This document shows, one piece after another, positions 32,848 to 37,964 of a stretch of DNA of 64,000 bases. Location: the sequence record NC_070870.1, one strand, 5' to 3'. Below the pieces are notes generated by a model, which saw nothing but the letters and a program-made list of their open reading frames with translations, did not search any database and was not told where the DNA came from. Each line of letters begins with the position of its first letter. Position 1 is the first letter of the stretch. Made by a program: the position numbers and the translations under genes. Source of the DNA: Escherichia phage phi G17.

Positions 32848-33839
32848 CGTTTAACCTGCCCCTCCACGACTTTGATAGCACCCTTGCCACCTTTTTCAGC
32901 CATGAAGATACGAGCAGATGCCATATCATCAAAGTTTTTGGTACTTCTGGCTCCGGGCATATCTACCTTAGAAGCATCAGAGAAGTATTTAAACTGTGGC
33001 TCTGTTCGCCACAACTCCTCGTCAGTACATTCAGGGATTTCCTCTTCAGGTGCATCCCAGTACTTTTCGATTAAGTGAATCTTCTCTTCCACCCAACGTT
33101 CAGTCTTCTCAGCAGACAGCAACGGAATATCCTTATGCATAATACGATTAGCAGGATAGTTCGGATTGCTATTAGCCATGTGTTTCATGAAGTCGGTGAA
33201 GATGTAGTTAATACGGATTACATCCTCGGTAATGATGTCGTTGTGAATCCAACGGTACAAGCTGCCTTGCATCTTATGTTCATCATCACGGGAACCAGCA
33301 ACCCAGGAATAGGTTGAGGTAGACTTGAAGTCTTGTAACAGACCTTCCGTTACGATGTCGAACTTACCACCGATGGTCCAACCCTTAACTACCTTGGTTC
33401 CACGTTGTTCAATGTAGATTGGGATAAGGTCTGGGTTAGCAGCAAAGTCTGCTTTGGTTGGGTTAATGACTACTGCATCAATTACTCGCTGAGGATAACC
33501 CAGCTTCTTCAATGCAGTCTTATGACCTAGCTTCCAGGCTTTCTCGATAGAGTCATGTAAGCCAGTTCCCATTGATGTGGAGACGAAATCCATAACATCA
33601 ATAGACTGGTCACTAAAATCTACACGATGTTTCATGACTATTTGCTTAAGTGGTTTAAGCAATGTAGTAGCAGACAGATACTTAGGATTGTCTACGTAAT
33701 CATACTCATCATGTAATAGCCATACAGCCAGAGCCAGCGAGACATCATGATTGTTGGTTATCTTCATTAGTAAGTAATCCTGTAACGATAAATATCTGCC
33801 CACCTGATAGATTGGAAATGTAGTTCTCCTGGAAAGCAT
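32787..33839 (-). CDS. PD-(D/E)xK-type nuclease with C-terminal Cys cluster (Cas4/RecB-like exonuclease)
   Basis: 350 aa; C-terminal C...CLYCPVASIC (CxxCx5C) pattern as in Fe-S containing Cas4/AddB nucleases; start overlaps primase so true start may be internal. Confidence 0.5.
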   Translation of the reverse strand: MLSRRTTFPIYQVGRYLSLQDYLLMKITNNHDVSLALAVWLLHDEYDYVDNPKYLSATTLLKPLKQIVMKHRVDFSDQSIDVMDFVSTSMGTGLHDSIEKAWKLGHKTALKKLGYPQRVIDAVVINPTKADFAANPDLIPIYIEQRGTKVVKGWTIGGKFDIVTEGLLQDFKSTSTYSWVAGSRDDEHKMQGSLYRWIHNDIITEDVIRINYIFTDFMKHMANSNPNYPANRIMHKDIPLLSAEKTERWVEEKIHLIEKYWDAPEEEIPECTDEELWRTEPQFKYFSDASKVDMPGARSTKNFDDMASARIFMAEKGGKGAIKVVEGQVKRCLYCPVASICKQRERYFPS

Positions 33840-34240
33840 GTGTACGTTTTACAATGGTTTATGTACTCATACTCAATCTTCTTCCACTTACACATGAAGG
33901 ATGGTCTTTCATTACTGTAAACCCAATCGGTACTGGATTCTTCCAACTTATCTATTTCACCACTATCCTTAGAATCAATATAAGCTTTAACAAGTAGACG
34001 ATTAGCGTAATGAACTAGCTTCTCACAGTCATAGACTGTAGTGTTTCCAGGTTTACCATTACCCATACGGGCAGCAGCATTTCGCCATAGAGCCTTAAAG
34101 GCACAACCTTCATCGAAGGTCATGCCCAGTGCTTGGATAATATCTTCACACTCTGCTTGGTATGGCTCTTGCTCTTTCCGTTGGGGATTCTTAATCGGAA
34201 CTACATAGTAGTTATTAAGACCACCGGAGAGCTTAGTCAT
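33767..34240 (-). CDS. hypothetical protein (DUF3310-like N-terminal region)
   Basis: 157 aa; N-terminus NNYYVVP...AECEDIIQALGMTF...GNAA...KLVHYANRLL resembles the phage DUF3310 family from memory. Confidence 0.35.
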   Translation of the reverse strand: MTKLSGGLNNYYVVPIKNPQRKEQEPYQAECEDIIQALGMTFDEGCAFKALWRNAAARMGNGKPGNTTVYDCEKLVHYANRLLVKAYIDSKDSGEIDKLEESSTDWVYSNERPSFMCKWKKIEYEYINHCKTYTCFPGELHFQSIRWADIYRYRITY

Positions 34241-34545
34241 TATTCCCCCTTGGGAACCATGTTTGCTTGGAACTCAGGTTCAGACATCAGGCCCAGGTTG
34301 TTGATAGACAGATAAACAATATCTTTCAGGTCAACCGAGGTGTCGAAACGCTGGTCCAGACTAATCTTCAGAGAGTGATTGGCACGGGCCAAATCTTTAT
34401 AGGTCACATGAGGTTCGGCAGTGAGCAGCATTGTATTCATGGTAAGCAGGGAACCATCATCAGCTTTAGGAAGCTGGAAGATTACCTGTGCTGCTACCAT
34501 CCAATGATATTTTTTGACGACGGTTTCTTTAGTACTTTTAGTCAT
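34240..34545 (-). CDS. hypothetical protein
   Basis: 101 aa ORF, start overlaps upstream stop. Confidence 0.35.
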   Translation of the reverse strand: MTKSTKETVVKKYHWMVAAQVIFQLPKADDGSLLTMNTMLLTAEPHVTYKDLARANHSLKISLDQRFDTSVDLKDIVYLSINNLGLMSEPEFQANMVPKGE

Positions 34546-35513
34546 GCGAATGCCTTTTGAATTGTTTGATTAACTTCTTCAGGGGTAGCGTGATTTGGAA
34601 TCTCAATCTCGTTAGCCCACGTTGGGTAGAACAAGGACAGTTCCCCACCCAAACCAACTTCTGGATGAGCAATATCGGGATGGTCTTGCCAGTTAACGGC
34701 TTCAACCAAATGCTTGTTCGTGTACTGCAAGGTATCCATGTTGTCACGAATCATGAAGTACTGAGCATCATGAATGTGAATACTAGGACGTATATCTAAT
34801 CTGAACTCACTGGTTCTGACTTTACGCATAAATTCTGAGCCAGCACGGTTATTCAGTAGACACCAGCTTTGCCCTAAGGCATTGCCAGCAGTTCTACCTT
34901 CAGCCTCTGCTTCATATGGAGTCTTACATGTCCCACGTAAAACCTGAGCCAGTAAAGGAGTACGCACTCTTAAACCAAATGCAGCAGTTACATAACCAGT
35001 CTTAGCAGCCTCGTCTAGCTTAGCCTGAACCCAGGCATCACTAACTGTATACATCTCATGGTATCTGGACTCGATTAACTTAGCCTTCTCTTCAGAGAAG
35101 CCACAGTTTTTCATCAAGCCCATGTAAGTCCCACCGTAGGTCAGTAGGAAAGTGGGTGCTTTTGACTCACTACGTAAAGCCTTATACTTTTTCTGTATAG
35201 AGTTGATGCCTTCCACAGAGTCATCAATATCCGGCATTTGTTCACCGAAATAAAATTTAGCTCTGAGCGAATGCCCGTCGAACCCGTCAGTATAGACGCG
35301 CAATTTATTAGGGTCTTTGGTTGTTAGGGCTGATATACGATCCTCTAAGGACGCAAAATCGAGGCCACAGAACAACCAACCTCCCTCATAGTTAAAGCAT
35401 TCTGATACTTGTTCCTGCATGCCATATTTACTAGCCAATTGCATTAACTCGTCATAATCATCCAGGGTTACTCTATCTTTTATGCTAACTAATTTATTTA
35501 ATAAGTCCTGCAT
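34542..35513 (-). CDS. DNA polymerase (family A) C-terminal fragment, carrying motifs A, B and C
   Basis: GLDFASLEDRI (motif A, D-Y/F-S-Q-I-E-L-R), K-x3-F-x3-YG (SKAPTFLLTYGGTYMG, motif B), IHIHDAQ (motif C); own strong SD AGGAGAAGG 8 nt upstream of ATG at 35513. Confidence 0.8.
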   Translation of the reverse strand: MQDLLNKLVSIKDRVTLDDYDELMQLASKYGMQEQVSECFNYEGGWLFCGLDFASLEDRISALTTKDPNKLRVYTDGFDGHSLRAKFYFGEQMPDIDDSVEGINSIQKKYKALRSESKAPTFLLTYGGTYMGLMKNCGFSEEKAKLIESRYHEMYTVSDAWVQAKLDEAAKTGYVTAAFGLRVRTPLLAQVLRGTCKTPYEAEAEGRTAGNALGQSWCLLNNRAGSEFMRKVRTSEFRLDIRPSIHIHDAQYFMIRDNMDTLQYTNKHLVEAVNWQDHPDIAHPEVGLGGELSLFYPTWANEIEIPNHATPEEVNQTIQKAFA

Positions 35514-36150
35514 TACGAAGTACCTTCTCCTGTTCAACCATGTTATTAGCTAATACATAGGTAATAACTGCATTCATAACAGTATCTAGATCTCTATCTA
35601 CTAGGATTTCCACTCTCTTACCTAAATGGGTAATTCTACCTACCCATTTATTTTTCGACTTACTGTAACTAACATAAGGAGTTGTACTCCAAACCCTTTT
35701 GTTAGTTTGTTGGGTACTCCTATTTGCCCATCTACAATTGTCTGGAGAGTAGTCTTTGTAGGCGTCAATCCTGTCAATACTCAGTCCTATTTCATAGCCG
35801 GAAGATAATGCCCAATCTCGGAAATTTTCATATGAATTTTTCCACTCATCACAAACATTTATGCCTTTGGCCCCATATTTGTAATAAGTGGAACATTTTT
35901 CATTATGACAGCGGTCTAGCATACCGTAGTAAACCTTGTATAGAGGCTCTTTTGAACGCCCATCCTTGTAATTACGAGGGCATTCTTTGTACAAGCAACC
36001 ACAGCTTCTTGTATGACCACTTTTTAATTTTTGAATATTGACCACAGTGGTATTACCACAGTCACACAGACATACCCAATGCTTTGCATAGTATTTGTCT
36101 TTGTGGCTGAATCTCACTACGGTCAATCTATTAAATTTCTTTCCAATCAT
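35494..36150 (-). CDS. HNH homing endonuclease (HNH_3-type with AP2-like DNA-binding domain)
   Basis: CDCG...SCGC zinc-binding cysteines, LSIDRIDAYKDYSPDNCRWANRSTQ signature, C-terminal WVGRI...GKRVEIL AP2-like segment; ATG overlaps the TGA of the upstream polymerase fragment (ATGA). Confidence 0.8.
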   Translation of the reverse strand: MIGKKFNRLTVVRFSHKDKYYAKHWVCLCDCGNTTVVNIQKLKSGHTRSCGCLYKECPRNYKDGRSKEPLYKVYYGMLDRCHNEKCSTYYKYGAKGINVCDEWKNSYENFRDWALSSGYEIGLSIDRIDAYKDYSPDNCRWANRSTQQTNKRVWSTTPYVSYSKSKNKWVGRITHLGKRVEILVDRDLDTVMNAVITYVLANNMVEQEKVLRNAGLIK

Positions 36151-37964
36151 TTGGCACCACCAATTGTATTTTTCAGGGACTGGATTAATGTATCCAGCTT
36201 GTCCCTGTTTGGCAAGTAACAACTGGGTGGGGCTTCGAAGCATTTCTTAATCTTCTTGGCGTATTTAGAACCGGATGGAATTGTTTGTAGATTGGGCTCT
36301 GAAGCCGATAGCCTACCGGAGACTGTGCCTCCCAGATTGAGGTTGCCGAACAGATAGTGCCAGCCATCCGGCCCCGGTTGGGCATTCCTGAAAGCTGGTA
36401 TAAAACTAGTGATAATCTTATCCACGAGTTTATAGTCGATAAGTGCATTGAGCAGTTCCTTAACATCTTCACTCTGCGTATGTGTACGCAGTGCTTTAAT
36501 AGTGTCACCGTCAGTAGCAGGTTGCTTGCTCTTAGTAAGACCAAGAACCGGTAAGCCAATGTAATCAAATAACAGTTTCTGTAACTGTGGACCGGAGTTA
36601 GGATTAAACTCTATGTCACAATCAGCCAGTGTTACTTGCTTCTTCTTGAGCTTAGCATTCTTATCGTCTACCCATTCCTGACGAAGCGTCAGGGTGAAGT
36701 TCTTCATGAGCTTAGACTCACGAATAGTTTTCAGAGCCTGGTTCCTGTCAGTTTCCATCTCTTCAGCTACTTGGTTAACGGTTTCCATATTCATGGGCAT
36801 ACCGGTTAACTGCATCTGAATAATGTCTTCACAGGCTGGTTTAAAGATGTTGTTGTAAACATCCAGTTGGTCATCAGCAATGAGAGTATCCCAGTGCTTC
36901 TCGTAGGTGTACCACGTACACAAACCATCAATGAGGTTGTAACGTAACAGTTGCTCATTAGGAATAAGACAAATGTCTTTAATATCATCCTGAGCATAGT
37001 TACCGGCATACTCCTGAGCCTGGTCTTTCAGACTAAGGTGATTACCAGCACAACTGTTAGTAGCCAAGTAGGTGATTAACTTAGTACAGTCCCAATTACG
37101 CAGCATGATTTCCATGCCATGTAGTAAGCCTTCTGTATCAATCAGGTTATCCATGAATAGCTGATAGATAAGTATGTACACGTCATAGCTAATGTTGTGA
37201 TACATCTGCCGTTGAGTGTACTTAATGAAGAACTCACGTAACAGGTTACGAACAATATCGTTCCTGTTAATGCGCCCATAGGGTGCTTCAGTAGCCCCCT
37301 TAATCGGCTCGTAGTCCACATTAAAGGCTATGCCTTGTGTCTTACTCCAACAGAACGTAATCGTTCCTATACCTGCGTTATAGTGCTTTAAACCGAAGGA
37401 TTCGATGTCTATAGCCAGAGGCTTATTCATCTCAAGCAACTGGTCTAACCAGGCTTTAATCTTTTCGGGTGTGTCTGGATAGGCTTCAAACTCAATGATT
37501 CCCTGCCCAGGTTCAGCATACTGTCCTCGAATGTGGTTAAGTAATGCATCCATACCCTGAGCAATCTTGGCTCTCACTACAGGTGGGTCATAAAAGACCT
37601 GTCTGTAGTTAGGTGTATAGATAACCTTCTGCTTACCCCATACTGAGTCACAAACATAGCCGAGGTTAGCCTCTGCTTTAGCTTCTTTAGTCAGTATTTT
37701 GAAGTAGTCAGAATCGGTACAGATAATGTACTGAGTCTCTGCGTCATCCAGTACTTGTTGCAGTTCCTGCTGTATGAACTCTTTAATCTCCCTTGCAGGA
37801 GTCTTCTTCTTGCCTGGGGCAGAATGAAGTTCAAGGAAGATGAAATCTTCCATGCTTAGGTCATAAGGCAGCAGGTAGGTTTTAATCATCTCCTCCCTTC
37901 GGATTTGATGACCGAGGATAGCAATAGGATACTTACCCGTATCCTGAGAGGTGATGTAACGCAT
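36147..37964 (-). CDS. DNA polymerase (family A) N-terminal fragment: 3'-5' exonuclease plus N-terminal polymerase region
   Basis: Exo I LAIDIESFG, Exo II HNISYDVYIL, Exo III RYNLIDG; FNPNSGPQLQKLLFDYIGLP and SGRLSASEPNLQTIP match Pol I family segments; ORF stops just before motif A. Confidence 0.8.
   Translation of the reverse strand: MRYITSQDTGKYPIAILGHQIRREEMIKTYLLPYDLSMEDFIFLELHSAPGKKKTPAREIKEFIQQELQQVLDDAETQYIICTDSDYFKILTKEAKAEANLGYVCDSVWGKQKVIYTPNYRQVFYDPPVVRAKIAQGMDALLNHIRGQYAEPGQGIIEFEAYPDTPEKIKAWLDQLLEMNKPLAIDIESFGLKHYNAGIGTITFCWSKTQGIAFNVDYEPIKGATEAPYGRINRNDIVRNLLREFFIKYTQRQMYHNISYDVYILIYQLFMDNLIDTEGLLHGMEIMLRNWDCTKLITYLATNSCAGNHLSLKDQAQEYAGNYAQDDIKDICLIPNEQLLRYNLIDGLCTWYTYEKHWDTLIADDQLDVYNNIFKPACEDIIQMQLTGMPMNMETVNQVAEEMETDRNQALKTIRESKLMKNFTLTLRQEWVDDKNAKLKKKQVTLADCDIEFNPNSGPQLQKLLFDYIGLPVLGLTKSKQPATDGDTIKALRTHTQSEDVKELLNALIDYKLVDKIITSFIPAFRNAQPGPDGWHYLFGNLNLGGTVSGRLSASEPNLQTIPSGSKYAKKIKKCFEAPPSCYLPNRDKLDTLIQSLKNTIGGAK

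Follow-up and report, generated by a model that had tools for sequence, protein, structure and literature searches.

How could a phage afford to have the gene of an essential DNA polymerase broken just before its catalytic motif A, with a homing endonuclease gene lodged in the break? This question is raised by the genome of Escherichia phage phi G17 (NC_070870.1), of which a stretch of 64,000 nucleotides (nt), hereafter the window, was analyzed and assigned by megablast to Gamaleyavirus, i.e., to the G7C-like, N4-like phages of the Schitoviridae. The locus comprises three open reading frames (ORFs), all on the minus strand like every other feature of the locus described below: an N-terminal polymerase fragment (N-fragment, 36147-37964), an endonuclease (35494-36150), and a C-terminal polymerase fragment (C-fragment, 34542-35513). 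An earlier note, made from the sequence of the window alone, had placed them at these positions, which were confirmed. We propose with considerable confidence that the polymerase gene has been split by a free-standing homing endonuclease cassette, that its two products act in trans as separate polypeptides, and that the short extensions found at the break, a C-terminal tail on the N-fragment and an N-terminal head on the C-fragment, most likely aid the association of the two halves.

The N-fragment (605 aa, 69.3 kDa) contains the 3'-5' exonuclease, the thumb, and the start of the palm, and ends in KKIKKCFEAPP followed by the tail. It matches the Pfam family DNA_pol_A (2.7e-18, profile positions 11-152) and carries the exonuclease motifs AIDIES (residues 184-189), HNISYDVYIL (residues 256-265), and YNLID (residues 342-346). 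The C-fragment (323 aa, 36.7 kDa) consists of the head, then the palm and fingers, and matches the same family (1.2e-15, profile positions 136-303) with motif A DFASLEDR (residues 52-59, 35337-35360, catalytic Asp52), motif B KAPTFLLTYGG (residues 118-128, 35130-35162), and motif C HIHD (residues 246-249, 34767-34778); its invariant residues are D52, K118, F122, Y126, G128, H248, and D249. The defining motifs of a family A polymerase are all present, Exo I-III in one piece and motifs A, B, and C in the other, and the coordinates, the Pfam matches of both fragments, and the motif positions agree with the split family A polymerase that the earlier note had described. Neighboring ORFs overlap pairwise. 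The stop codon of the N-fragment and the start codon of the endonuclease gene share the 4-nt sequence ATGA at 36150-36147, as had been noticed before, and the endonuclease and C-fragment genes share 20 dual-coding nt (35494-35513), which encode the endonuclease end NAGLIK with its stop codon and the C-fragment start MQDLLNK. The strong Shine-Dalgarno sequence (SD) and ATG previously ascribed to the C-fragment are likewise in place: GGAGAAGG lies at 35530-35523, within the C-terminal codons of the endonuclease and 9 nt before the ATG. A scan for sigma-70 promoters and terminators returned nothing beyond the shuffle expectation.

Where exactly is the gene broken? The related phages G7C and E20 each encode the polymerase as one 859-aa ORF, and the GenBank note on G7C gp39 records its likeness to the single DNA polymerase coding sequence (CDS) of N4. 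Alignment to the G7C protein, the kind of mapping that the earlier note had proposed, puts the insertion point between polymerase residues 580 and 581: the N-fragment equals residues 1-580 plus a tail of 25 aa, and the C-fragment equals a head of 44 aa plus residues 581-859, which begin at GWLFCGLDFASLEDR. The part colinear with gp39 residues 1-580 (36225-37964) has 96.6% nt identity to its counterpart, and the tail (36150-36224, SCYLPNRDKLDTLIQSLKNTIGGAK) occupies N-fragment residues 581-605, which corrects the first description of this ORF. The head spans 35382-35513 (MQDLLNKLVSIKDRVTLDDYDELMQLASKYGMQEQVSECFNYEG). Across the insertion point G7C gp39 reads KKIKKCFEAPP and then GWIFCGLDF, and the C-side of the window reads GWLFCGLDF. 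The break thus falls 7 residues upstream of the motif A Asp, which in an ungapped Klentaq alignment is equivalent to the junction between AEE and GW before Asp610 of Taq polymerase. The insert amounts to 843 nt net and is entirely coding, its 207 nt outside the endonuclease ORF encoding the tail and the head. Tail peptides of the N-fragment include CFEAPPSCYLPNR, LDTLIQSLK, and the C-terminal NTIGGAK, head peptides of the C-fragment include MQDLLNK and VTLDDYDELMQLASK, and CFEAPPGWLFCGLDFASLEDR would be a peptide of a joined polymerase of ~98 kDa and not of the separate halves.

Frameshift errors often show up as split ORFs, and among the public records of related phages some are fragmented (e.g., K17alpha62); the locus might accordingly be read as an artefact, or as a polymerase pseudogene in a phage replicated by another enzyme. 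However, the same insert occurs at 91-93% identity in phages U1G, PGN829.1, and ST4, whose GenBank records contain two 'DNA polymerase I' CDSs flanking an 'HNH endonuclease' or a hypothetical protein, and the identical architecture is found in many metagenomic contigs as well as in these four independent isolates. Moreover, the gap is filled by an intact 218-aa ORF under selection, the polymerase parts of both fragments have ratios of nonsynonymous to synonymous substitution rates (dN/dS) of 0.00-0.06, and no further paralogue of the polymerase was seen among the ORFs listed for the surroundings. An artefact or a dead gene is therefore hardly credible, and the assembly frameshift that had been named as a way to refute the split can be set aside. 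Because U1G, PGN829.1, and ST4 share and annotate the split, it is real and was already present, unanalyzed, in public records; the papers on U1G, ST4, and PGN829.1 do not mention it. The paired CDSs of these phages are best read as one split enzyme. In PGN829.1 (L005, 643-1338) and ST4 (L006, 643-1521), the annotated C-fragments of 231 and 292 aa, respectively, start too far downstream, and the conserved ATG that gives a 323-aa C-fragment is present in both.

Are the two pieces made as two polypeptides? A search with the C-fragment retrieved split C-fragments of far more distant N4-like phages at 55-66% identity, with a homologous head of the shared pattern M-Q-D/E-L-L ... CF-x-Y-E-x-GW. The cassette was found in 10 lineages (window/U1G/ST4; L022-24; L018/L014/L019; L015; L020; L021; L016; L027; L028). 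In every lineage, the N-fragment ends in CF(E/Q)AP(P/E/K) plus a tail of 17-27 aa with the motif A-R-Y-I-x-N-K-x-K-L-x-x-I-I-x-T-L-K, and the head measures 38-52 aa. The positions of the head Met and of the tail stop codon are kept across lineages. The ATGA overlap is kept in U1G, ST4, L018, and L014; in L021, L022/L023, L015, L016, L020, and L027, the N-fragment and endonuclease ORFs abut or are spaced, without ATGA. An AAGG-type SD lies 8-12 nt before the C-fragment ATG in Gamaleyavirus, L022/23, L018, L014, L015, and L016, and is absent from L020 and L021. By codon analysis, tail and head together have dN/dS of 0.09-0.19 within Gamaleyavirus; values are 0.07-0.14 for the head and 0.04-0.19 for the endonuclease; between the heads of L018 and L014, where dS reaches ~1.0, dN/dS is 0.12. 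The split also persists where the endonuclease does not: in L015 (3535-4000), the latter has decayed to an 83-aa ORF and out-of-frame remains, with split, tail, and head intact, and in L028 (1-4502), which has no endonuclease at this place, the gap from the N-fragment with its tail to the C-fragment with its head is taken up by nrdA and nrdB (3 kb).

The earlier proposal of two separately initiated polypeptides acting in trans is borne out by the conservation of ATG, SD, and head in diverged lineages and by purifying selection on the extensions, and from sequence comparison we regard two polypeptides, rather than an intron or an intein, as well supported. From purifying selection on both fragments and the viability of three isolated phages carrying them, we infer that the fragments would assemble into an active enzyme. 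As a separate observation, the head-bearing C-fragment of L022 (699-1627) is broken again after ~146 aa and is followed by a second 146-aa ORF continuing the polymerase, which reflects either one more split of the gene or an error in the sequence of a short contig.

The earlier note had kept open a self-splicing group I intron, in which the endonuclease ORF would be an intron ORF, the exons would be joined into the 859-aa polymerase, and the tail and head would be read-through artefacts. Group I introns are classically found in the family A polymerase genes of phages, and the SPO1/SP82 polymerase introns encode I-HmuI/II. A sister phage, PhAPEC5, has such an intron in the same gene 20 codons upstream (L003, 1598-1851, minus strand), according to its GenBank note and to a match to the Rfam group I model RF00028 (E=2.8e-6), and introns were suggested for the split DNA polymerase of Vibrio N4-like phages (PMC3670811). 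The covariance-model search that had been proposed as a check (cmscan against Rfam), in which PhAPEC5 was positive, found no RF00028 core at E<=10 in the window between 34900 and 36700, and none at E<=1 in L014, L015, L016, L018, and phage SP5M (L004). In addition, the insert contains no non-coding bases, and the 207 nt beyond the endonuclease ORF encode peptides under purifying selection; the C-fragment Met and the tail stop codon are conserved, as is the SD in most lineages; and the gap of L028 holds two ribonucleotide reductase (RNR) genes. Taken at the homology boundary, the colinear 5' part closes with C in the window and in ST4, where U would be usual for a group I intron, and with T in U1G. 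The tail-coding RNA has an unusual degree of structure (z=-3.27), as an intron might, whereas the head-coding RNA does not (z=-0.89).

Phage introns can escape Rfam. A candidate for this is L014 (2430-3364), which contains both an HNH_3 element, inserted between PNL and Q, and the cassette described here, with a polymerase piece of ~55 codons between them; the upstream element is probably an intron undetected by Rfam, because the ~55-codon piece has no start codon. For the cassette itself, with no core in six instances, no non-coding sequence in the insert, and nrdA-nrdB in the L028 gap, the intron caveat is largely removed; we rejected a group I intron and consider it very improbable.

An atypical miniature split intein, in which tail and head would trans-splice the halves, e.g., ...KKIKK to CFNYEGGW, was also considered. 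The arrangement of a fragment, a free-standing endonuclease, and a second fragment is that of the fractured genes (PMC2677866), a Cys stands just after the putative junction in each half (CFEAPP and CFNYEG) such that splicing there would restore the native length, and the opposite charges of tail and head are reminiscent of split inteins. However, known split inteins carry Cys1, TxxH, and a terminal Asn on N-parts of 88-105 aa and C-parts of 33-54 aa, and the 25-31 aa plus 38-52 aa available here are too short for the HINT fold. There was no Pfam HINT or intein match even at E<=10 for the fragments, the tail, the head, or tail-head concatenates; the head lacks a His-Asn end and is modeled as helices, not beta strands; and the candidate nucleophiles vary among G, A, T, S, and C (e.g., G in the L016 N-fragment, A and T in the heads of L021 and L020, respectively). 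As both sizes and motifs are incompatible with the split inteins of Dassa et al., this explanation was rejected and deserves still less credence than the intron, and the earlier statement that the element is not an intein stands.

What, then, are the tail and the head? The tail contains an amphipathic helix segment and has a net charge of 0 to +3 across lineages, and the head has a net charge of -7 to 0. In the structural model of the C-fragment (mean predicted local distance difference test score, pLDDT, 90.6), the head forms three helices (residues 2-10, 17-29, and 33-37; pLDDT 75-88), followed by coil and then by the motif A strand. At its end, the head carries EQVSECFN, a divergent second copy of the native KKIKKCFE (hhalign P=0.004, 8 columns). 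This duplication, which the earlier note had met as a K-x-C-F stretch in both fragments and as a possible remnant of the insertion, is real and part of every cassette copy; it explains both that stretch (K/E-C-F, with the common nucleotides AATGCTT) and the fact that the two Pfam matches overlap by ~17 profile positions, an overlap that in turn confirms the duplication. The best alignment of the tail is in register with the native LDFASLEDRISAL and is not significant (hhalign P=0.065). The idea that tail and head together are a decayed polymerase duplication of ~65 aa was rejected, as hhalign backs only the 8 head columns. Alignments by tblastn that seemed to extend the head into unsplit polymerases turned out to be with ordinary unsplit genes.

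Tail and head most likely help the halves to find and hold each other. They might instead have no role in assembly, the split working in trans without them, and be leftovers of the duplicated target segment kept open by the overlapping translation signals or by the need to be harmless. Such an origin would fit the decayed copy of KKIKKCFE and the in-register alignment of the tail, as well as the fact that the last codons of the tail form the endonuclease SD and those of the endonuclease form the C-fragment SD and ATG. Moreover, Aeh1 NrdA and gp43A/B of Aeromonas phage 25 are reported to assemble with no dedicated adaptors described (PMC2988022), and the statistical case from charge and amphipathicity is weak for some lineages. 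On the other hand, low dN/dS extends over the whole extensions, beyond the overlaps, and holds between the L018 and L014 heads at dS ~1; the residues that make up the helix pattern are conserved over 10 lineages whose polymerases are 55-65% identical; L015 and L028 have kept the extensions even though endonuclease loss and replacement by nrdAB, respectively, have removed the overlap constraints; and the head is modeled as a structured module. We therefore find the leftover explanation rather doubtful and favor a role in association. Presumably, the target region was duplicated when the cassette arose, and the surplus copies later became, or gave way to, association extensions. More tentatively, and with somewhat less than even odds, the whole can be viewed as a portable gene-splitting kit, in which an endonuclease travels with matched non-intein association peptides that re-tether the polymerase halves at the catalytic core.

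The free-standing endonuclease (218 aa, pI 9.4) had been described as an HNH_3/AP2-type protein, a call that holds at the level of superfamily and fold, by PHROGs and structure, and fails at that of the Pfam family HNH_3. Pfam and NCBIfam gave no match, and neither HNH_3 nor AP2 was matched even at E<=10, whereas in the same Pfam search HNH_3 was matched by the endonucleases of PhAPEC5 (2.3e-07) and SP5M (3.2e-06). The protein matches phrog_374 'HNH endonuclease' of PHROGs (2e-63), and tblastn found relatives in 1,169 phage records; a viral-contig search for related loci returned only 36%-identical endonuclease relatives, and neither this endonuclease nor those of PhAPEC5 and SP5M have any paralogue elsewhere in the window. 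Its best sequence match in the PDB, a weak one over the motif LSIDRIDAYKDYSPDNCRWA, is PacI, a His-Me finger nuclease of group 20 with zinc-binding cysteines and without the catalytic His, whose role is taken by a Tyr in the omega-loop (PMC5714182). In the AlphaFold2 model (pLDDT 93.8), an N-terminal Cys-rich beta domain is followed by a PacI-like beta-beta-alpha-metal nuclease core (residues ~64-152, 35695-35961) and a putative AP2-fold DNA-binding domain (residues ~158-201, 35548-35679). In the nuclease motif IDRIDAYKDYSPDNCRWANRSTQQTN (35778-35701), D126-R127 replaces D-H. Among 46 aligned homologues, Y92, G96, C100, W103, R127, Y134, P136, N138, and C139 are invariant, and D126, N150, and two cysteine clusters are nearly so. 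Fold and motifs point to a PacI-like His-Me finger with Arg at the position of the catalytic His and Tyr134 as the putative catalytic residue, joined to an AP2-fold domain. The endonuclease is probably active, because its ORF is under purifying selection. A longer ORF from the ATG at 36243 (249 aa) was rejected owing to an in-frame TAA in ST4.

If the endonuclease drives homing, its spread may be expected to leave a footprint in the flanks. Comparison of the window with ST4 shows polymerase flanks that diverge by 20-40% around a cassette that is still ~90-95% identical. On the 3' side, a tract of ~360 nt (35390 to 35030; foreign flank annotated as a co-conversion tract at 35030-35381) is common to the window, U1G, and PGN829 and has ~30% mismatches to G7C/E20; beyond it, identity to G7C/E20 is back at 95-97%. 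In ST4, the foreign tract is present over only ~90 nt, and no equivalent tract was found on the 5' side of the insert. Such a variable, one-sided donor flank is, to judge from these alignments, the expected footprint of endonuclease-driven intronless homing, and the one-sided co-conversion suggests cleavage 3' of the insertion point. Apart from this, a patch of ~100 nt at 34001-34100 of the window is 47-60% identical to G7C, E20, PhAPEC5, SP5M, and ST4 and ~90% identical to U1G and PGN829, marking another mosaic segment in a 157-aa ORF (33767-34240) two genes downstream of the polymerase.

Expression of the endonuclease may also be constrained. A stable mRNA hairpin is predicted in the tail-coding RNA (36233-36154, z=-3.27), in which CCACC of the APP codons would pair with GGUGG (36161-36157), the SD-like sequence formed by the last codons of the tail before the endonuclease ATG. 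It shows one compensatory C-G/U-A change, and analogous pairings occur in L014, L015, L021, and L027. The hairpin, which resembles the hairpins that sequester the ribosome-binding sites of I-TevI and mobE (PMC2988022), is a possible translational repressor of the endonuclease, whose translation is probably kept low by ATGA coupling together with this SD-covering structure.

The following scheme would account for these observations. As the sequence shows, a cassette lodged between CFEAPP and GWLFCGLDF, ahead of the motif A Asp, has turned the gene into three tightly overlapping cistrons, from which the polymerase pieces are translated apart, the C-fragment from its own SD and ATG inside the last codons of the endonuclease. 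The pieces would then reassemble non-covalently into an active polymerase, as Aeh1 NrdA and gp43A/B of Aeromonas phage 25 do, tethered by the basic amphipathic tail helix and the acidic three-helix head that travel with the cassette. The endonuclease, translated at a low level through coupling to the N-fragment stop codon and the hairpin, would cut cassette-less polymerase alleles, and repair from a cassette-bearing genome would copy the cassette along with a variable 3' flank. Several points weigh against parts of this scheme. The assembly of the halves in trans rests on inference; the charge complementarity of the extensions is modest, the L015 head and the L023 tail being neutral; a negative Rfam result is not proof, as the intron-like upstream element of L014 also went undetected; and three pairs of the hairpin are broken in ST4, and the hairpin is absent from the minimum-energy fold of L018.

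The polymerase gene of these phages has attracted other insertions. In PhAPEC5, PhAPEC7, and Moonfish (L007), a different element lies between SEPN and LQTIP; in PhAPEC5, whose depositors annotated it as an intron, it encodes an HNH_3 endonuclease and aligns end to end with RF00028 at 38 bits, below the gathering score, and a literature search on this intron found no paper. It shares with the cassette the host gene, the neighborhood of the PNLQ motif 20 codons upstream of the cassette site, and the nature of a mobile endonuclease-bearing insertion, and differs in its RF00028 core, its HNH_3 endonuclease, and a downstream exon without a conserved extension. SP5M (L004, 643-3917) has a third type, with an HNH_3+NUMOD4 endonuclease inserted between KLKVY and TDGYDGH and no intron by Rfam, in which the N-fragment gains a beta-rich tail of 44 aa and the C-fragment a head of 29 aa (MSQF..KKVG.T); this head was found in ~20 metagenomic C-fragments (P0013, P0022, P0060, P0062, P0065, P0083, and others). 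This second, unrelated tail/head pair, widespread in metagenomes, suggests that a gene-splitting kit, if that view is right, may be a general strategy in the Schitoviridae.

Some features of the metagenomic contigs stand apart from these insertions. On several contigs of 55-76 kb (P0045, P0047, P0048, P0052, P0058, P0085, and others), C-fragments start with M(G/F)LDFASLEDR and have no head, and may represent yet another kind of split or intron, located at this site or close to it. Downstream of the split polymerase, L027 (5420-6126) has matches to the Pfam families Sequestin and Acb2/Tad1-hairpin (anti-defense), and L016 (5729-8024) encodes phosphoribosyl pyrophosphate synthetase and NAMPT (nicotinamide adenine dinucleotide salvage).

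How does the locus compare with known systems? Free-standing endonucleases that split essential phage genes are known from Aeh1 (nrdA/mobE), Aeromonas phage 25 (gene 43A/B), and T4 (39/60 with mobA), and the split enzymes Aeh1 NrdA and phage 25 gp43A/B were shown experimentally to be functional (PMC2988022). The phi G17 locus belongs to this kind of genes in pieces: the gene is contiguous in G7C/E20 and is split, with a conserved stop codon, ATG, and SD, in the window, U1G, PGN829, and ST4. In nrdA-a/mobE/nrdA-b of Aeh1 (Friedrich et al. 2007), as here, a free-standing endonuclease of the HNH superfamily interrupts a critical region of an essential gene related to replication, and, as proposed here, the products of two cistrons reassemble and the mobE ribosome-binding site is sequestered by an RNA hairpin; however, the host gene encodes a class Ia RNR instead of a family A polymerase, the nuclease is of another subfamily, and no conserved cassette-borne terminal extensions are described (PMC2988022). 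The 43A/seg43/43B locus of Aeromonas phage 25 also encodes a split DNA polymerase, the halves of which co-purify and are active (Petrov et al. 2006, via PMC2988022), but the polymerase is of family B, the endonuclease of the GIY-YIG (seg) type, and the split at another position. The Vibrio N4-like phages JA1 and VchO139-I, compared here by description, have their DNA polymerase split by an HNH-family endonuclease gene, which was noted in passing as a possible intron without analysis of site, endonuclease type, or extensions (PMC3670811).

Fractured genes have the identical layout, with oppositely charged extensions at the break, and are phage-borne in DNA synthesis enzymes (PMC2677866); their extensions are HINT split inteins with catalytic Cys/Thr/His/Asn that ligate the protein, and their endonuclease is Vsr-like. 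Because the extensions in the window are short, helical, and without intein motifs, no ligation is expected here. PacI (PDB 3ldy/3m7k) is a 142-aa homodimeric restriction enzyme, whereas the window protein adds the Cys-rich and putative AP2-fold domains and belongs to a phage family with the behavior of a mobile element. Within this known kind of locus, the conserved tail/head pair of non-intein type is new; we did not find described a cassette-borne pair of this sort, its persistence after endonuclease loss, nrdAB in the gap, or the kinship of the nuclease to PacI.

These observations place a large phage family, known to PHROGs as 'HNH endonuclease' and not modeled in Pfam, beside the Tyr-dependent chemistry of PacI. 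They also make testable an openly stated question, that of how split polypeptides reassemble, since tail and head are concrete, deletable candidate determinants of assembly at a break 7 residues from the catalytic Asp of a replicative polymerase. Ten diverged natural forms of this break are available, among them forms in which the endonuclease is intact, has decayed, or has given way to other genes, and G7C provides an unsplit sister. If tail and head are adaptors, they would be short natural tags for the non-covalent complementation of a DNA polymerase, and would account for the ability of free-standing endonucleases to enter catalytic cores that have neither intron nor intein. If the cassette is indeed a gene-splitting kit, a free-standing endonuclease could colonize a site normally open only to introns or inteins, and the split would be self-sustaining, outlasting the endonuclease as in L015 and serving as a landing pad for other genes, as for nrdAB in L028.

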